Virus record (IMG/VR): IMGVR_UViG_3300032560_000102
Location: 1-26,435 of that record
DNA: 26,435 bases
DNA from: a virus
Taxonomy: Duplodnaviria; Caudoviricetes
Reading direction: 5' to 3' (one strand)
Below the pieces are notes generated by a model. That model did no database searches, was not told where the DNA came from, and saw only the letters and a program-made list of their open reading frames with translations. Positions 914 through 13,234 of the stretch are shown piece by piece. The position numbers were made by a program, and so were the translations under genes. Position 1 is the stretch's first letter, and each line of letters opens with the position of its first letter.

Positions 914-2666
914 AAACACCTATCCTTTTAAGGTAATCGGACACATTTCGACCTACAGTGAGCTGTTCAGGGGTGAAATCATCCTGTACACGGGATACTC
1001 TGCGAGTGAGCTTTTGATTTATCAATCTTGGCTGTACTTGTTCAGCATAAGCAGCGCAAGCTAGGGCTGTAGCGATCACACGGTCATCTTTGTTGCGACC
1101 AGATGCTTCAATTGAGCTGCCATCACGAATAGTGGTTTTCATTTCATCAATGGTATCCAAATCGTAGATGTCTAACATCCCACGCTCAAAGTAATCCTTC
1201 ATGTAGGTGAGCATCCTCTCTTTGGTAGCTGCCGTTGTCATCCAGCCAATCGAGTTAGACAAGCCACCCATCGTATCGTTCCTGCGCCAGATGTAGTTCT
1301 GCATATTGCCGTACACATCCATGAGGTCTTTACCCAAAGCTGTACCCATCGCAGCAGCTTGACGCTTGAGGTTGCGTAGTTCATTGATGACCGCCTGACC
1401 TGGACCATTGATCTCAAGGTTAAGAGTAGAGTTTTTGTAAGCGCCAGCAAGGTGGGCTATTACCCAGGCAAATTGGTAGGTGTTCATTTCAGAGGTGGCA
1501 AATGAAGCCACCTGCTCAAGCCCGTCTGCATATACCCGCAGCACCTGAATACAGAATCTATCAGCCCAGTCGCTAGATCCATAAGCAGGATCAGCACCGA
1601 TAACATAATAAGCAGTGTCCACAGGTTCTTCCCAAACCTTGAGCGTGGCAAGACGCTCAGTGGATTTAAGTACTTCCGTGTCTTGAAAGTTAACTCCAAA
1701 AGAATATCTATAGGACTCATAGGGTACTTTCTTTAGTTTTTTCATGGCATCCGTACATCTTGCATTAGAAAAGAAAGAAGTGCCAGTCATCACAAAGGCG
1801 TAGTCCTCAGTAGGCGGAAACTCTTGATACATGAGGGAGTCATCCTTAATACCCTCTAGCATCTTCCAGCGCCACCAGGCAATCTGACGGGAATTGATTT
1901 CAACACCGTAGAGCTTTTTGATGTCACGCACCCATTCTTTTTCTTCACCTGTGAGCTTGCCATCCCAATAGACTTTGTAAGTCTGACCTTCAGGATCTAG
2001 GGAATACAGTTCGTTACGCCACCAGCCACAAAAGATAGCCCGTTGAGTCCGAGCCTTCTTAGCAGTAGTGTACATTTCGTGAAACATATTAAAGCCCCGT
2101 GCTGTGGACTCAAAAGTGTACAGACGATCAGGGTTAGTTTCCGCAAGGGAAGCTAGCAAGGAAGCTAATCCTTCTTCATCTCCCCAGCTTGAGGTTTCCG
2201 TTCCATGAAGGTATGTAATAGCCTTACCACGACCCAGACTTCCTTTCGCTCTAAGCCCAGCGACTTGATAAAAGATACGGCTGCGGTTTTTGAGGGAAAG
2301 CTGATTTCGGTTGTGAGCAAGGATCGGGATTTTGAACTCTTTGGGCAAACCATCCATATACATGGCAAGGGTTGTTCGGAACATATCCCTATTTTCTTCC
2401 GTATCTGTTGTGAGTGTGCCTTGAAGCCCTGGGTGCATGAAGTGCCAGTAGAGGTCAAGTGCGAGGGAGATAGTCGTGATTCCAAGTTGCCTTCCTTTCA
2501 AGATAACAAAAAAGTGGATGTCCTCCTCCAAGCCCTTTGCGATTTCATTCATCACATAGGTTTGACTACCAAGAAGGTTATCCATCTTGCGTAAGCCTTG
2601 CTCTTTAGTTTCAATCTTGAGCTGCTTACAAAAGTAGTAAAAATGCTGGAGGTTAAATTTACTCAT
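885..2666 (-). CDS. terL: Terminase large subunit
   Basis: 593 aa. Walker A-like LKGRQLGITT, Walker B-like YLHGTE, FESTARG coupling motif, RNase H-like nuclease YVIGADPAYG, NLEING and C-terminal KDDRVIA. Confidence 0.93.
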   Translation of the reverse strand: MSKFNLQHFYYFCKQLKIETKEQGLRKMDNLLGSQTYVMNEIAKGLEEDIHFFVILKGRQLGITTISLALDLYWHFMHPGLQGTLTTDTEENRDMFRTTLAMYMDGLPKEFKIPILAHNRNQLSLKNRSRIFYQVAGLRAKGSLGRGKAITYLHGTETSSWGDEEGLASLLASLAETNPDRLYTFESTARGFNMFHEMYTTAKKARTQRAIFCGWWRNELYSLDPEGQTYKVYWDGKLTGEEKEWVRDIKKLYGVEINSRQIAWWRWKMLEGIKDDSLMYQEFPPTEDYAFVMTGTSFFSNARCTDAMKKLKKVPYESYRYSFGVNFQDTEVLKSTERLATLKVWEEPVDTAYYVIGADPAYGSSDWADRFCIQVLRVYADGLEQVASFATSEMNTYQFAWVIAHLAGAYKNSTLNLEINGPGQAVINELRNLKRQAAAMGTALGKDLMDVYGNMQNYIWRRNDTMGGLSNSIGWMTTAATKERMLTYMKDYFERGMLDIYDLDTIDEMKTTIRDGSSIEASGRNKDDRVIATALACAAYAEQVQPRLINQKLTRRVSRVQDDFTPEQLTVGRNVSDYLKRIGVYGNATGNPQ

Positions 2667-3375
2667 TGGTTAGCCAAGGTAATTTGTTGTTGTATTTCTC
2701 AAGCATGGTCTTATTCCCTTGTTCAAAGAAGTCACGACCTACTGAGTATTCGTTACCACCAAGCCTAAAACAAAAAGTGTTTTGTCCTGACCAAGCAAAG
2801 TTGGGATATACCTGAGTAGCTGCTGCGTAGAACTTTCGATCACCACCCCATCCTGGCTGAGAAAGAATAATGGCTAAAGTCTTGAGGCACTCCGTTTTCA
2901 TGCCCCACATACACCAATCCACAAAGCTATGACCTGGTGCGTTCCAGCAGTCGTGAAGGCTTCCAAGGGCTTCGCAGTTATCTTCGCAGATAAACCGCCC
3001 TTCCTTCTCGTACACAGAGCGTAGGCAATAGACCCAATCATAATCTTCTTCCATTTTGGTCATAATGGACTCTACATGATTAGGCTTGTACCAATCGTCA
3101 TCGTTGCAAAAGAAAGTCACATCTTCATTCACAAGAAAAGCACTTGCAGCATAAAGCCTTCTGCCTTCTACATCTTTGCCCCCGACCTTACCATCCCAAT
3201 AGCAGATCTTTAATTCTGGGTATAGCCTTCTTAGTTCTGCGTATTGATTAAAGCCTTCATCGCAAACAATGTAATGCACCACTGGATAAGTCTGGGCTTT
3301 TACACTAGCAATGCAGTTTGCTAACTCCCAGTGGCGCTTCCCGTTGGTAACTGTGACTACGGCTGCGGTTTTCAA
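2659..3375 (-). CDS. Glycosyltransferase family 2 (GT-A fold)
   Basis: N-terminal AVVTVT...CIASVKAQTY...YIVCDE, DxD-like FFCNDDDWY, and GGDRKF motif typical of GT2. Confidence 0.85.
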   Translation of the reverse strand: MKTAAVVTVTNGKRHWELANCIASVKAQTYPVVHYIVCDEGFNQYAELRRLYPELKICYWDGKVGGKDVEGRRLYAASAFLVNEDVTFFCNDDDWYKPNHVESIMTKMEEDYDWVYCLRSVYEKEGRFICEDNCEALGSLHDCWNAPGHSFVDWCMWGMKTECLKTLAIILSQPGWGGDRKFYAAATQVYPNFAWSGQNTFCFRLGGNEYSVGRDFFEQGNKTMLEKYNNKLPWLTNE

Positions 3376-4058: not shown

Positions 4059-4088
4059 ATCATACACTACCATGATACACACATACAA
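4059..4088 (-). promoter_or_regulatory. Putative sigma70-like promoter for the leftward terminase operon
   Basis: Minus strand TTGTAT-18 nt-TATGAT upstream of the SD of the gene starting at 4034. It overlaps the start of the divergent + gene. Confidence 0.35.
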
Positions 4089-4797
4089 CGAATATCATCT
4101 AGGCGATAACCTTATTCATCTGAACTATTTGCGTAAGGTTTGTGAGCAAGATAGTGACATGGACTTTGTTCACCATTGCCATCCGCAGTACCATAGCCAG
4201 CTACAACCCTTGTGTGAGGGCGTAAGCATCCTCTTAGCAGATCTATCCATCCCACCAGGCTCTATTAACGCTTGGATTGGCAGGGACAACTACTTTCACA
4301 ACCACCCTCTTAGACGGCAGTGGGCGCAATTTCACATGGAATGGTTTGACCATCTATCAGACCTGTTAGAAGTTTCCTCGCCTATAGCTTGCAAGGAAGA
4401 TCTCTTGTTCGAGTATCCTGCTCTGAGAGAGCAGTCTAGGTATGAGTTTGACCTCCTAGTCATTAACTCTCCCCCACAGTCAGGGCAATTACCAGACTTT
4501 AATGCGGATTTCTTTAAAAAACGGGTCATGGAATTAACAAATGAGGGGTTAAAAGTCATTACTACCCATCCTACAGGCATCGTTCCTAGCACTCTTGAGA
4601 GCCATTACACGGTCACTGACATCGGTGTGCTTAGCAAAGGCGTGCAGTTAATCGAGGGTGTGGATACTGGTCCAATGTGGACTACCCACAATATCTTCAA
4701 TCAAGACAAGGTGTTATCACGCCTGATCTACACCAACGCCTCTGATTCATTCGATCTGTCAAAGAATGTCATCGTTAAGCAAAGTCTAAAAAACTAG
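4072..4797 (+). CDS. Glycosyltransferase family 9-like (GT-B) protein
   Basis: N-terminal HLGDNLI and C-terminal GVDTGPMW match the GT9 heptosyltransferase signatures (xLGD; GxDSGxxH). Confidence 0.6.
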   Translation: MIHTYNEYHLGDNLIHLNYLRKVCEQDSDMDFVHHCHPQYHSQLQPLCEGVSILLADLSIPPGSINAWIGRDNYFHNHPLRRQWAQFHMEWFDHLSDLLEVSSPIACKEDLLFEYPALREQSRYEFDLLVINSPPQSGQLPDFNADFFKKRVMELTNEGLKVITTHPTGIVPSTLESHYTVTDIGVLSKGVQLIEGVDTGPMWTTHNIFNQDKVLSRLIYTNASDSFDLSKNVIVKQSLKN

Positions 4798-5079
4798 AAT
4801 TTTTTTTGGGGTGGAATGGGAGAGGGGTACGCTCTCCATCAAGTCCAGTCCCATTCACTTGGGCGGATTCAGTCAACGATCTAGCAACAATCAACGGGTA
4901 ACCATTACCAGTTACGCCTATAGATACTATATAAGGCATTGAGCTAGTGATGACAGGGATACCCTTTAGGAATTATGTAAAACAACAGAGTGCGGAGAGT
5001 AGTCTACCTTTCCAGGCTTCGGCATACCCAATCTCTTATCTATGTATCTATCTACTAACTTACATAATTACTATATAAA

Positions 5080-5140
5080 TATAGAAACTATAGAAGCCTA
5101 TGAAGTATAGAAAATAGACTATAGACCTATAGATTATAGA
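5080..5140. repeat. AT-rich cluster of six TATAGA repeats
   Basis: TATAGA at 5080, 5089, 5106, 5120, 5128 and 5135, plus one at 4919, within a 490 bp non-coding gap. Confidence 0.8.
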
Positions 5141-5214
5141 AGATAGACTATCACCTGGATCATAGCATAAGACTATTGGAAATAAAACAACAATTAAAAA
5201 ATACAATGGTATAG

Positions 5215-5286: not shown

Positions 5287-6165
5287 ATGACTACAGCACA
5301 AGTAAACCGCATTAGCGTATATGACAGCGTTACCAACAATATCATCGCTAAATTAGAGGCAGGGATCACGCCTTGGATTAAACCCTGGAAATCAGGCAGC
5401 GTAGGCGGAGCTGATCGCAATATCGTATCTAAAAAAGAGTATTCAGGCGTTAACCGTTTAATTCTAGGTATGTCAGGTTACAGCTCACCTATCTGGGGAT
5501 CATTCAAGCAATGGCAGGAAATGGGCGGGAATGTGCGCAAGGGCGAAAAGGGTACGCAAGTAGTATTTTATTCTCAGGTTACTAAGAGCGAGATTAAGCC
5601 TACTGATCTAAACCCTGATAAATCTACTTATGCCTTGCTGAAGTCTTACTATGTTTTCAATTCAGATCAGATTGAGGGATTAGAGATCACTAAACCTGAG
5701 CCTGTCATCGCTACCTTTAATCCAGTACCCGCCTTAGATGATCGCATTATTAAGACTGGCGCTCAGATCTCGCACGGTGGTGGTAGGGCATTTTATAGAC
5801 CTAGTTCAGATAGCATCACAATTCCTGATCGCTCTACTTTTTTAAGTGAGAGCCACTACTATGCCACTGTATTGCATGAGCTGACTCACTGGTCAGGCGC
5901 TGAGCATCGTTTAGATCGTACAAAAGGCAAACGCTTTGCTGATAGTGCTTACGCTTTTGAGGAATTAGTAGCGGAAATGGGCGCTGCATTTTTATGCGCT
6001 GATTATGGTATTGAAGGTGAGCTGCAGCACGCTGACTACATCGGCAATTGGCTACAGTGCCTTAAAAATGACAATAAGGCGATATTTAACGCTGCAGCAC
6101 TGGCACAAAAGGCAGCCGATTACATCAACAATTTAGATGCAATAACTAACCAAGCAGCAGCCTAA
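5287..6165 (+). CDS. ardC: ArdC-family antirestriction ssDNA-binding protein with zincin-like C-terminal domain
   Basis: PWIKPW, YSGVNRLIL, WGSFKQW..GGNVRKGEKG, YYVFNSDQ, HELTHW metal motif and YAFEELVAE. Confidence 0.92.
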   Translation: MTTAQVNRISVYDSVTNNIIAKLEAGITPWIKPWKSGSVGGADRNIVSKKEYSGVNRLILGMSGYSSPIWGSFKQWQEMGGNVRKGEKGTQVVFYSQVTKSEIKPTDLNPDKSTYALLKSYYVFNSDQIEGLEITKPEPVIATFNPVPALDDRIIKTGAQISHGGGRAFYRPSSDSITIPDRSTFLSESHYYATVLHELTHWSGAEHRLDRTKGKRFADSAYAFEELVAEMGAAFLCADYGIEGELQHADYIGNWLQCLKNDNKAIFNAAALAQKAADYINNLDAITNQAAA

Positions 6166-6691: not shown

Positions 6692-6850
6692 ATGAGAAAT
6701 AATGATATTTATACTATTCAACGCAAAATCTTTATAAAGAAGAAATATTCCCCCATGCGTGTGCAAGGGCTGATAAGTAAAGATCAGTTAATTGACTTAG
6801 TAGCTGTATTTGGTGGTTTGCTACTGGTTTGGCTACTGTTAGCATTGTGA
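6692..6850 (+). CDS. Small membrane protein (52 aa, not in the ORF track)
   Basis: GAGGT SD. MRNNDIYTIQRKIFIKKKYSPMRVQGLISKDQLIDLVAVFGGLLLVWLLLAL has a basic N-terminus and a C-terminal TM helix. Confidence 0.65.
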   Translation: MRNNDIYTIQRKIFIKKKYSPMRVQGLISKDQLIDLVAVFGGLLLVWLLLAL

Positions 6851-6851
6851 G

Positions 6852-7153
6852 AACCCCAAGACCCCATGAACCCCGAGAGAATAAGAACCTTACCCGCCTT
6901 ACGGTGGGGGATCTCTTTTCAGAGAGTGGTTATCGTTTATCTATGGCACTTAACTAAAGCGGTGCTGTCCAGTAACGGTCCGCCAGATGGTAGCTGCCTT
7001 GTTTATCCCTATCCATCACCACAATGTTTAGGAGGGCTGGGTTATAGCCCCGTAGTAGTTCGCTTTAATGGTGGTTTTAATGGTGAGTGGTCTTAAATCG
7101 TTATGGATGCCCCCATCGCATAACTAACCTAAAACCACCACTAAAACAAACTT
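6852..7153 (-). ncRNA. Candidate structured non-coding RNA, antisense to the early arm
   Basis: 23-bp stem 7130-7152/7057-7079, uninterrupted only on the minus strand (3 G-U pairs). Further hairpins at 7100-7124, 7034-7050, 6913-6924 (GAAA loop) and 6893-6908 (GUAA loop). A promoter lies directly upstream. 3' end uncertain. Confidence 0.6.
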
Positions 7154-7159
7154 AATCGG

Positions 7160-7188
7160 ATTAGATCATACTTTTTAAAGGAGTGCAA
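7160..7188 (-). promoter_or_regulatory. Putative leftward sigma70-like promoter
   Basis: Minus strand TTGCAC-17 nt-TCTAAT with a TGn extension. Predicted +1 at about 7152-7153, the first base of the long stem. Confidence 0.5.
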
Positions 7189-7192
7189 CAAA

Positions 7193-7351
7193 ATGAACAA
7201 AGCAGATAAAGATGCGCAGAAGTGGCAAGAGATGAACCAAGCAGCTCAGTACCGAGAATGGATCAGAGCAACAGAAACAGGTACGCCTTATTACATCAAT
7301 CCCCAAGGCGATGTAGTGACCGAAGATAAAAAAACAACACCTAACAAATAA
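7193..7351 (+). CDS. Hypothetical protein (52 aa, not in the ORF track)
   Basis: AAGGAG SD. MNKADKDAQKWQEMNQAAQYREWIRATETGTPYYINPQGDVVTEDKKTTPNK. Confidence 0.7.
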   Translation: MNKADKDAQKWQEMNQAAQYREWIRATETGTPYYINPQGDVVTEDKKTTPNK

Positions 7352-7381: not shown

Positions 7382-7425
7382 TCTAACTGTAGTACATCAA
7401 AGCCTAACTATATAAAGGAAATATC

Positions 7426-7931: not shown

Positions 7932-8128
7932 AAGCATTTCCAAATCCTATGACGCTAGATCGTAGCGGTAGAACTGTTGAAAATCAAGTCGGCATGGACT
8001 TACGAGATTACTTTGCATCCAAAATAATTGTTGCTTTAATACCTAATAATCAATCACCCGAGATGATTCCTTATGTATGCGAGGCAGCATATAAATGGGC
8101 TGACACAATGATGGAGGCTCGCAAATGA
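7928..8128 (+). CDS. Conserved phage hypothetical protein (AFP...GMxLRDYFA family)
   Basis: MKAFP...GMDLRDYFAS...AYKWADTMMEAR, with ATGA overlaps at both ends. Confidence 0.8.
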   Translation: MKAFPNPMTLDRSGRTVENQVGMDLRDYFASKIIVALIPNNQSPEMIPYVCEAAYKWADTMMEARK

Positions 8129-9024
8129 ACGATCAAGCAGATTTTGCACCAGAGATAAGGCGTTCTGCTATCTGGTCTGGTGACAGTCGTAAGGTCGCTA
8201 ATGGCAAGATGGTAGATGTGATCCTAGAGAAGCAAGGTAAGAAAGAGTTAAAAGACCTCTCAGGCGTGGAAGCAGTGCAGATGGGTCATGTTATGCAACC
8301 CCTGATTGGCAAGCTGGCTCAAGATCGTTTAAAGATGGAGTTAAAAGATGCTGATTATTCGATTACCCATTCAAAGCATACTTGGTTTAAATCTCATTTT
8401 GATTTCATTAGTGCTGATGGTGGTGTGCTTGTTGAAGCTAAAAACTACAACGCAGCAGTTCGCTCTAAGTTTGATCCCGACACTAATCGGATTCCTGATG
8501 CTGATTACGCACAACTTGTCCACGAAGCTGCTTGCCACAATGTTAATCGGATCTTTTTGGCTGTTTTATTTGGTGGTCAAGAGTTTCATACCTTTGAATT
8601 TACTATTTCAGACCAAGAAAAAGATGATCTCATACAGAAAATGGCTACAGTTTGGGGTCATTGCCAAGCGGGTACGCTTCCGCCAGCAGAAACAATTGAG
8701 CAAACTAAGATCATTTACCCGTCATCCTCTACTGCGGTGGTTACGGCTACACAGCAAGTTGAGTTGGCTATCGCTCAATTACGGGATGTCAAGAATCAGA
8801 TTAAACACCTTGAAGCTACTGAGGAGCAGATTGAAGTGGCTGTCCGTAATCTTATGGGAGAGTGCCAGGAGATTAGAACAGTGGATGGACAGACATTAGT
8901 TTCTTGGAAGTCCTCTAAAAGCTCTAAGAAGTTCTCAGCATCACTGTTTCAGAGTGCCATGCCTGATATTTATGAGCAGTTCGTAGTAGAAACAATGGGC
9001 AGTAGGAGATTTTTGGTGAAATAA
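8125..9024 (+). CDS. YqaJ-like viral recombinase exonuclease
   Basis: RRSAIWSGD, MGHVMQP, SHFDF, LVEAKN and YAQLVH match lambda-exonuclease/YqaJ motifs. Confidence 0.85.
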   Translation: MNDQADFAPEIRRSAIWSGDSRKVANGKMVDVILEKQGKKELKDLSGVEAVQMGHVMQPLIGKLAQDRLKMELKDADYSITHSKHTWFKSHFDFISADGGVLVEAKNYNAAVRSKFDPDTNRIPDADYAQLVHEAACHNVNRIFLAVLFGGQEFHTFEFTISDQEKDDLIQKMATVWGHCQAGTLPPAETIEQTKIIYPSSSTAVVTATQQVELAIAQLRDVKNQIKHLEATEEQIEVAVRNLMGECQEIRTVDGQTLVSWKSSKSSKKFSASLFQSAMPDIYEQFVVETMGSRRFLVK

Positions 9025-11947: not shown

Positions 11948-12039
11948 TGAAATTTTGGAAAAGAAAACAGATGAACGGCAAGACTTTTGAGATTGTGCAG
12001 ATTTTAGGTGATCTCATCATTGTTAAAGAGTTCAAATAG
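11947..12039 (+). CDS. Small hypothetical protein (30 aa)
   Basis: MKFWKRKQMNGKTFEIVQILGDLIIVKEFK, with TAATG coupling upstream and TAGTG downstream. Confidence 0.45.
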   Translation: MKFWKRKQMNGKTFEIVQILGDLIIVKEFK

Positions 12040-12482
12040 TGAATGGATCAAACTCCTACGCAGAACGGCAAACCGTTGCTAACAAAGGTGAGGTTCTATT
12101 TCAGGAATGGTGTCAATTTAACGGCTATCAAGTCAGTAGGATTGGCTTTGATGAAAAGCATGGAAATGTGGCTAATTTTTTCAATTTGCCTTGTCTTTTA
12201 CGCAATTTACCTGATTTTGTTATCAGTAGAGGTGATGAAACGATGGTGGTTAATGTCAAAGGAACAGCCAATTTTAAGGAAAAAGAAATAAAGATGATTC
12301 CGATGTTTCTGGAATGGTTTAGCAGTAAGAAAGCACCACTGGTTTATGCTTTTTGCTTTGAGGGTTGCGATCCCTTGTTTGTTTATCCAGAGAAAGTAAT
12401 TTATCTGTATGAAAAAGCTACTAATCGCAAATGGAATGATGGAGTGATCTATCGCAACTTAAACTTTATGGAATTATTATGA
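12039..12482 (+). CDS. Putative PD-(D/E)xK-fold nuclease
   Basis: GEVLF...LPDFVI...VVNVKGT pattern, with N at the canonical D/E position. Confidence 0.55.
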   Translation: MNGSNSYAERQTVANKGEVLFQEWCQFNGYQVSRIGFDEKHGNVANFFNLPCLLRNLPDFVISRGDETMVVNVKGTANFKEKEIKMIPMFLEWFSSKKAPLVYAFCFEGCDPLFVYPEKVIYLYEKATNRKWNDGVIYRNLNFMELL

Positions 12483-13234
12483 CCGATCTATCTCAAGTAA
12501 AAATATTTGTGGCTAGCCCTATGTACGGAGGCATGTGTGCTGGTTACTACACTCAATCAGTGATGCAAGCTCAAATGGTGTTTTCTCATTACAAAATAAA
12601 CAGCTCTTTTAGTTTTATGTTCAATGAGAGCCTAATTACCCGTGCCAGGAACGCTTTAACAGCAACTTTTCTCAAAGGTGAATATACGCACCTCATGTTT
12701 ATAGATGCAGACATCAAGTTCAATCCTCACGACATTGTAAAAATGATTGAGGCTGATAAAGACATTATTTGCGGTATTTACCCTAAAAAAGAGATTAACT
12801 GGGATACAGTAAAGAACGCAATGGATGCTGGTGTGCCTAATGATCGTTTAAAGCACCATACAGGCTCTTTTGTGGTCAATTTGGTAGATTACCAAGGAGA
12901 AGTCACTGTGCCTGTTGCAGAGCCTGTAGAGATCTTTAATGGCGGTACTGGATATATGCTGATTAAGCGTGAAGTTTTTGAAAAGTTAGCAGATCATGTG
13001 CCAACTTACTTTAATGATGTTTTAGACCTTGCTGGCACTGTTGGGCAGCGTGATGAGATTAAAGAGTTCTTTACTACTTCGATTGAGCCTGAAACTCAGC
13101 GCTTGTTGTCAGAGGATTACCACTTTTGCCGTATTTGGAGGCAAATTGGCGGTAAGGTTTACGCTGCTCCCTGGTGTGATCTCGCTCATATAGGTACTTA
13201 CGCCTTTGAGGGTAAATTGATCCCTGCTGGTTAA
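12479..13234 (+). CDS. GT-A fold glycosyltransferase (GT2-like)
   Basis: IFVASPMYGG, ESLITRARN, LMFIDADI (DxD), GTGYMLIKREVF and LSEDYHFC. Confidence 0.85.
   Translation: MTDLSQVKIFVASPMYGGMCAGYYTQSVMQAQMVFSHYKINSSFSFMFNESLITRARNALTATFLKGEYTHLMFIDADIKFNPHDIVKMIEADKDIICGIYPKKEINWDTVKNAMDAGVPNDRLKHHTGSFVVNLVDYQGEVTVPVAEPVEIFNGGTGYMLIKREVFEKLADHVPTYFNDVLDLAGTVGQRDEIKEFFTTSIEPETQRLLSEDYHFCRIWRQIGGKVYAAPWCDLAHIGTYAFEGKLIPAG

Follow-up and report, generated by a model that had tools for sequence, protein, structure and literature searches.

What occupies a gap without genes in the early region of a tailed phage, and could it be the place at which copying of the genome begins? The gap lies in IMG/VR record IMGVR_UViG_3300032560_000102 (26,435 nt; Caudoviricetes; 73% complete), the whole of which was analysed and is called the window in what follows. 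An earlier note, made from the letters of this DNA, had pointed to a promoter-driven structured RNA on the minus strand that ends in G-tracts, and had proposed it as a candidate for either an RNA-primed phage origin of the ColE1 kind or a regulatory RNA.

Genomic Setting

The minus strand of the window encodes the terminase and virion genes; the plus strand carries an early block, in the order ArdC-like gene, small ORFs, RecE-like gene, RecT-like gene, SSB, HNH and RusA; complete relatives of the phage measure 34-40 kb. Two 52-codon ORFs flank the slot, and the gap between real genes, given as 340 bp in the earlier note, is indeed free of genes over 342 nt (6851-7192; Table 1). A tRNA/tmRNA search of the window returned none. 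The view that the phage has no visible replication genes also holds, as no match to an initiator, helicase, primase or polymerase was obtained in the close lineage. DnaB, Pol A and Toprim domains were found in 0 of 23 genomes (17 of these at least 90% complete) by a search whose positive controls gave matches, no initiator occurred among the scanned ORFs of the close genomes (88 + 67 ORFs from partly overlapping sets, a subset of their ORFs), and the 147-aa ORF at 12039-12482 bears no likeness to initiators.

Two further features of these genomes may be recorded here. Relatives carry E1-dehydrogenase/transketolase-like, radical SAM and glycosyltransferase-like genes (L310 17646-19878, L308 10951-13174), and the window stretches 2659-3375, 4072-4797 and 12479-13234 belong to this group; it perhaps represents a pathway of DNA or virion modification. 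Furthermore, a repeated ACCTAACTA / CCTAACT motif lies just 5' of the ribosome-binding sites of early genes (window 5263, 6229, 6668, 7644), is also seen at 7403 and 9084, and occurs in relatives of all slot types.

Table 1. Anchors, slot boundaries and elements of the RNA in the window, ordered by position.
Feature	Position	Strand	Remarks
ArdC-like anti-restriction / ssDNA-binding gene	5287..6165	+	PF08401, PF18818, phrog_7245; left synteny anchor
Small ORF left of slot	6692..6850	+	homolog flanks DnaA-box module in L052 and L066
Three GGGG runs	6854..6874	-	optional slot-boundary repeats, outside the RNA family
Conserved tail	6882..6891	-	conservation ends; putative RNA-to-DNA switch point
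P6 hairpin and conserved CGGGT (6896-6892)	6892..6909		CGGGT is putative partner of the ACCC loop (PK2)
P5 hairpin	6912..6925	-	87% paired, alignment imperfect; tandem DnaA boxes here in some remote members
PK1 downstream partner of L3	6926..6930	-	99.3% paired; 4/5 pairs double-changed, 2 pass tree null
Second motif GATAAACGA(T)	6932..6941	-	invariant in 60 cores
P4 domain	6945..6998	-	outer stem, inner stem, small hairpin
First ATAAAC motif	7001..7006	-	conserved in close and remote members
P3 hairpin with loop L3 (7022-7018)	7007..7033	-	two helices, 95% and 100% paired
P2 hairpin	7034..7050	-	follows invariant ACGG core start; loop ACCC 7042-7039; 100% paired, 3/4 pairs double-changed
P1 leader hairpin	7057..7152	-	23-bp outer stem, inner hairpin 7124-7100; optional exchangeable module
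P1 bulge	7080..7085	-	complementary to L3; alternative upstream partner
Promoter-like site	7160..7188	-	TTGCAC 7188-7183, 17-nt spacer with TRTG-n, TCTAAT 7165-7160; predicted +1 at 7153
Small ORF right of slot	7193..7351	+	homolog flanks DnaA-box module in L052 and L066
RecE-like exonuclease	8125..9024	+	phrog_434 and others; right anchor; then RecT-like, SSB, HNH, RusA

A Family of Phage RNAs

Scans anchored on RecE or on a sequence pattern gave 220 loci including duplicates, which reduce to 63 non-redundant homologs at 95%; the RecE, ArdC and pattern sets overlap and contain near-identical contigs. The first remote member was found by a covariance model, and a looser pattern matches about 490 viral stretches, from which a subset of 119 loci (20 close, 99 remote) was analysed; 97 distinct remote segments collapse to 31 non-redundant members. 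The RNA occurs in both orientations relative to the genes, and some remote copies lie 5' of genes on the same strand.

An Rfam scan, which the earlier note had proposed, gave no match in the window at the gathering threshold and four chance matches at E up to 10, and no Rfam family matched the element in 20 remote loci. Along these lines, blastn against annotated phages and plasmids returned chance matches only, with no homolog in 72,556 plasmids, and a pattern scan of GTDB returned a single match that is not a homolog. A literature search found no published description of this RNA within its coverage, although the supplement of PMC5737381 could list the motif; four short motifs taken from the element are absent from six supplementary files of PMC10690425, whose files 1, 2 and 4 could likewise hold it. 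No publication was found that combines phage origin, RNA primer, structured RNA and ColE1. As judged by comparison of homologs, the element is a real, uncatalogued and widespread family of phage RNAs.

Architecture of the RNA Core

Taken alone, the window sequence folds modestly better than its shuffles (z -1.77 on the minus and -1.34 on the plus strand), and the structural model was examined in an alignment of 60 distinct cores of close homologs, one further core lying outside the extraction pattern. Over these 60 cores the model structure pairs 97.1% of the cells, compared with 78.3% in shuffles and 41-59% in slid controls; 27 of its 39 pairs show double changes, and 11 of the 39 pass a tree-based null (our own implementation modelled on R-scape, with 60 simulations), as does one pair outside the model. 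The covariation extends over seven helices and a long-range pseudoknot, so that the minus-strand structured RNA put forward earlier is borne out by stems that covary among homologs. The 23-bp stem (7152-7130/7079-7057) with its three G-U pairs on the minus strand is there as described, and so are the inner hairpin at 7124-7100 and the hairpins at 7050-7034, 6925-6912 and 6909-6893; the last of these, with its GUAA loop, exists, but it has an A-C mismatch when read on the minus strand, and 46 of the 60 cores give it a better fold on the plus strand. The extent of the element had been recognised in part; what had been overlooked are P3 and P4, which form the main core, the two long-range pseudoknots and the pair of ATAAAC motifs.

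Within P3 the pairs 27-47, 31-43 and 33-41 pass the tree null, and within P4 the pairs 59-113, 60-112, 63-110, 76-98 and 77-97. The P4 domain is bracketed by the two ATAAAC motifs and is highly variable in sequence and size among remote members, the span between the motifs ranging from 27 to 157 nt in 31 of them. The first of these motifs is part of the loose search pattern for the family; the second is found in 93 of 97 distinct remote segments, though it lies outside that pattern. Loop L3 pairs with its downstream partner, as pseudoknot PK1, in 26 of the 31 non-redundant remote members, which use 22 different 5-mers as the partner (null mean 2.9, maximum 9). A second pseudoknot, PK2, would join the ACCC loop (7042-7039) to GGGT (6895-6892) and is 100% paired in the 60 cores; one pair varies, from C-G to A-U in six related sequences, and fails the tree null, and (C/G)GGGT is present in 30 of 31 remote members. 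From these patterns PK2 probably exists in the fold. The conserved tail includes the hexamer AAGCGG (window 6893-6900, 38 of 63 homologs), which is known from PriA primosome sites and is here a candidate for such a site.

The earlier note had named a conserved coding signal as an observation that would speak against an RNA. The 76-codon ORF at 6866-7096 is without codon periodicity and its frame shifts among homologs; the variation by codon position is 0.22, 0.21 and 0.19, on which the protein-coding reading of 6866-7096 was rejected. Core lengths fall in all three frames, and the frame of 6866-7096 is free of stops in 42 of the 60 cores. In view of the positions of promoters and leaders in remote members, the core can be delimited as ACGG to CGGGT and is most simply understood as RNA, with P1 as an add-on.

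Promoter-Like Site, Leader and 3' End

The promoter-like layout occurs at the same place in all 63 of 63 non-redundant close homologs, with a spacing of 17 nt in 61 of them (none with A at -11) and TATAAT at 18 nt in the other two, and it is retained even where the neighbouring gene and its ribosome-binding site are missing. The leftward promoter of the earlier note has the hexamers, the TG-n and the spacing ascribed to it, all conserved, but a consensus promoter scan does not call the site at 7160..7188, where the -11 base is C and not A. An A at -11 is important for the strength of sigma-70 promoters, and by this rule the promoter is predicted to be weak. Of 31 remote members, 15 have a consensus promoter whose end lies 5-8 nt ahead of the ACGG start (background 104/9300), 12 have a U-tract leader in front of the ACGG core, and 4 have neither. 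As a separate observation, the consensus scan called 0 sigma-70-type sites in the window between 4000 and 9000, where 12.5 are expected, and the apparent promoters of the window phage use TTGCAY at -35.

The P1 leader is absent from 15 of 31 remote members and replaced by a longer U-tract leader in 25 of 63 close homologs; 10 of its 26 pairs show double changes among 28 short-type homologs. In the short types the P1 bulge can form at least five Watson-Crick pairs with L3 in 34 of 38 (shuffle mean 11/38) and its sequence tracks the changes in L3, whereas none of the 25 long types has such a match. Since L3 is complementary both to the bulge and to 6930-6926, it has two mutually exclusive partners. 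In the long types, the P1 of which ends in a U-tract, the bulge matches the loop of an extra 5' hairpin with at least six pairs in 18 of 25, the search pattern having chosen the wrong loop in the remaining 7. This long leader consists of a 5' hairpin and a U-tract hairpin whose 7-nt bulge pairs with the loop of the first; as a mobile module it stands before at least three different RNA cores (window 7134-7160 compared with L018 3975-4090, L466 and L045).

At the other end of the transcript, conserved G-runs are a hallmark of the mitochondrial CSB II-type R-loop, and the earlier note had drawn on this likeness. The G-runs it listed (6895-6893, 6874-6871, 6865-6862 and 6857-6854) are present, but the three GGGG runs do not belong to the conserved element: in 35 of 63 homologs no GGGG occurs within 45 nt after the conserved 3' motif. 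A G-quadruplex or CSB II model was rejected as a family feature on this count, and the rationale built on G-tracts falls with it. The left flank of the slot carries at least two ACCCC copies in 22 of 58 RNA-type loci, 19 of 21 AT-only loci and 2 of 26 DnaA-type loci.

Exchange of the Slot with Other Modules

The slot sits in a variable early region in which unrelated cargo also swaps, a point that speaks against the origin reading. Among 80 RecE-anchored loci, with varying flanking genes, 53 hold the RNA only, 14 a DnaA cluster only, none both and 3 neither, the remaining 10 being too short. The DnaA-type slot consists of three to four perfect DnaA boxes spaced 11-12 nt next to an AT-rich tract; in L052 and L066 three boxes stand between homologs of the two small ORFs that flank the slot in the window. 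Looked at from the other side, 0 of 119 triple-box loci, 24 of which are related phages, match the close-family profile. We take the DnaA-box module to be a putative origin, from the DnaA-box consensus and the AT-rich neighbour.

A tree of RecE with 62 rows places 6 changes on the RNA label and 7 on the DnaA label, at least 4 of each being forced by strong branches; RecE may itself recombine, so the tree shows repeated exchange and not the order of events. The loci anchored on ArdC, which overlap with the RecE set, comprise 45 with the RNA, 1 with boxes, none with both, 24 with neither and 10 not spanned, and most of those with neither have an AT-rich repeat tract without boxes. With 24 of 70 informative ArdC loci lacking both RNA and boxes, the alternatives in the slot are not all recognisable origins.

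Some of these modules deserve description in their own right. The oriC-like modules (L052 1984-2015, L066, G003:C1:13730-13761; about 210 viral stretches) contain three to four phased perfect DnaA boxes and an AT-rich tract with TAG repeats; replication genes were not detected in the phages that carry them, and a palindrome in many related loci may be comparable to a Fis site. The AT-rich repeat module without DnaA boxes occupies the ArdC-RecE slot in L463, L469, L474-L495, L503 and L031; in most cases three ACCCC repeats mark its left edge. The slot at L466 5790-6180 and L509 4110-4500 (also L510) holds a third structured element, which is preceded by a similar leader and has no Rfam and no plasmid match.

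The slot is also filled by a catalogued RNA. Betaproteobacteria-1 (RF02932) lies there in G004 (L312 3896-4015) and G007 (L512 7443-7561), a similar stretch is found between ArdC and RecE in GenBank MW202753 (32546-32680), and about 200 viral stretches match its pattern. It resembles the present element in a consensus that ends in GCGGGU and in the same long leader in L018, and differs from it in the layout of stems. The two never occur together (0 of 119 and 0 of 120 loci), and the Betaproteobacteria-1 model has no match in G000, G001 and G002 at E up to 1 (threshold 49.4 bits). The slot of L018 and L019 had been considered as one for a Rep or HNH gene; this was discarded, since the HNH domain there stands behind Betaproteobacteria-1 (tested in G004, seen in L018). 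No publication among those covered by a literature search mentions Betaproteobacteria-1, although the supplements of PMC5737381 and PMC10690425 could hold notes on it. The connection with this RNA suggests Betaproteobacteria as hosts of the phage. None of 5 records matched the covariance model of Polynucleobacter-1 (RF01718), with E allowed up to 10.

A Proposed RNA-Primed Origin and Its Alternatives

As a DnaA-box cluster stands in the same place in relatives, the element is likely to be an RNA that starts the copying of the genome, and we lean, with some reserve, towards the reading that it works as an RNA-primed, R-loop replication origin with a built-in folding switch. In 5 of 31 remote members the stretch directly after the PK1 partner holds tandem DnaA boxes, with one mismatch at most; the background is 6 of 1915 windows, a count that includes those same sites. 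An initiator-like wHTH gene (140-210 aa, E down to about 1e-9) adjoins the RNA in 27 of 102 remote loci, and was found in 0 of 175 close, 0 of 120 Betaproteobacteria-1 and 0 of 119 triple-box loci, so that in the sets examined the family stands only beside remote members of the RNA; examples such as L587 3602-4228, L543 3607-4206 and L599 1934-2548 are candidate binders of the RNA or of the origin. With this gene in a quarter of the remote loci, the RNA is not always a substitute for an initiator, and the protein-independent origin envisaged at first fits the close lineage but not all remote members. Furthermore, the window copy points away from same-strand genes and both orientations occur, which argues against a gene leader.

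In the favoured reading, a leftward transcript from about 7153 would fold during its synthesis and remain paired with the template DNA close to the conserved CGGGT tail, and host enzymes would extend it. PK1 (L3 with 6930-6926) would set the active fold, and the ACCC loop could pair with GGGU in the RNA or in the displaced non-template strand and so hold the R-loop open. The host replisome would be loaded, as in ColE1, by RNase H and Pol I followed by PriA or DnaA. The P1 leader may limit firing, in that its bulge would compete for L3 in the short types; in the long types the U-tract terminator would attenuate, and the weak -10 would lower output.

The closest competitor, to which we assign a minor chance, also makes the element part of an origin and differs in the primer: transcription or the folded RNA would open the duplex or recruit a protein, which may be DnaA or PriA of the host or, by way of the twin AUAAAC motifs, the wHTH protein of the phage, and primase would prime. 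The slot exchange, the DnaA boxes and the initiator-like neighbours fit this too, and two invariant unpaired AUAAAC motifs suit the binding of a protein; the close lineage, however, has neither the wHTH gene nor DnaA boxes, and conservation stops sharply just after CGGGT, as is expected near the end of a primer.

A similarly small chance goes to a trans-acting phage RNA with a task outside replication, be it a protein decoy, an anti-defence factor or a ribozyme, that happens to reside in an exchangeable slot of the early region, the true origin then being an AT-rich tract common to all types. In this context the tract itself has to be described: TAG/CTAT repeats at 5030-5160 of the window, 5' of ArdC, are shared by RNA-type and DnaA-type genomes and lie at the switch in gene direction, and could be a packaging site, a genome end or part of an origin. 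The minimum of the cumulative GC skew falls near 5030-5160 and not at the RNA; genes also switch strand there, the cumulative skew follows gene direction, and the skew at fourfold sites follows codon usage. Tract and skew minimum would suit an origin upstream of ArdC, and a promoter-like site of its own, free orientation, a compact knotted core and AT-only slot alternatives devoid of DnaA boxes agree with an RNA acting in trans. Such an RNA would nevertheless leave unexplained why it never co-occurs with the separate DnaA cluster in the close group, why some members contain DnaA boxes and why others have initiator-like neighbours, and it lacks a conserved intrinsic terminator at its 3' end.

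Much less probable is a signal for initiation on single-stranded DNA, a site for a primosome or primase that would take up its fold once the minus strand lies exposed. DNA tolerates G-T pairs, DnaA boxes within hairpins suit a role as DNA, and Weinberg et al. (PMC5737381) raise such a role for plasmid motifs. Against it stand the constant spacing between promoter and 5' end, seen in close and remote members alike, and the U-tracts in which the long leaders end. The least probable reading is control of early genes in cis, by an attenuator or an antisense switch like c4 of phage P1 (which acts by an antisense mechanism) or CI of P4. In its favour are the single loop with alternative upstream and downstream partners, the long leader with its U-tract and with a 5' hairpin resembling the second c4-a1b1 hairpin, and some remote copies 5' of same-strand genes. 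Against it, the RNA of the window and of the close family faces away from the genes and has nothing downstream to regulate, Rfam C4 gives no match, and the leader is optional and shared with other cores.

Comparison with Known Systems

With RNA II of ColE1 / pMB1 (PMC3640518, PMC3035462) the element has in common a structured RNA, here predicted to be driven by a promoter and to need no phage or plasmid initiator, completion by host enzymes (a prediction in the present case), alternative pairings in the 5' part and, in some members, a DnaA box near the 3' end; in ColE1 a DnaA box lies close to the primosome site (PMC3640518). In contrast to ColE1, there is no sequence match, the core measures about 175 nt, the fold has long-range pseudoknots, the carriers are tailed phages and priming is a prediction. 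An opposite-strand promoter for an RNA I (TTG-16/18-TAnnnT) was found in 0 of 63 homologs, that strand has a U-rich run following P1 in a single one of the 63, and Rfam RNAI has no match in the window. The detailed likeness to ColE1 drawn in the earlier note is not supported, since no RNA I promoter was found; without conserved G-runs and an evident RNA I, the element is not a member of the ColE1 group.

Among other systems, RNA II / RNA I of MRB in Vibrionaceae is comparable as an origin of a few hundred bases with a structured RNA and no Rep gene; what defines MRB (PMC3035462) is an antisense RNA I of 68 nt, with a terminator, and a conserved RNA I region of about 110 bp, and the present element differs in having no evident RNA I and no plasmid homolog. 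The oriF and oriG of T4 are phage origins primed by an R-loop-forming transcript (PMC3016281). That paper describes a T4 replisome of its own, R-loops independent of a specific sequence, and a promoter followed by an AT-rich unwinding element; the present fold, by contrast, is strongly conserved, no replisome genes were found, and beyond the conserved 3' end the 63 homologs have no AT-rich tract that is conserved. ARRPOF and PAGEV are structured motifs of 200-350 nt in replication regions that need no Rep (PMC5737381); these are plasmid motifs of Fusobacterium and Vibrionales, and the element has no Rfam match. Finally, P1 c4 / c4-a1b1 is similar in a loop with up- and downstream partners and in the 5' hairpin of the long leader (PMC2864571), and dissimilar in that RF01695 does not match and the close family has no same-strand gene downstream.

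Implications for Phage Replication

Many small uncultured phages show no replication genes, and the element offers a candidate for where their replication starts. A wider reading, to which we would give slightly less than an even chance, is that the origins of small tailed phages lacking replication genes are interchangeable plug-in modules. One class of these would be a widespread and compact primer RNA with a double pseudoknot, which clamps its own R-loop and has a folding switch on the same strand in place of an antisense RNA; this would make it the third independent family of RNA-primed replicons after ColE1 and MRB. If this is true, Betaproteobacteria-1, an orphan RNA of Rfam, would gain a role as an origin primer. 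If confirmed, priming by structured RNA would extend beyond two plasmid families, and a compact pseudoknotted model for the formation of R-loops would be added.
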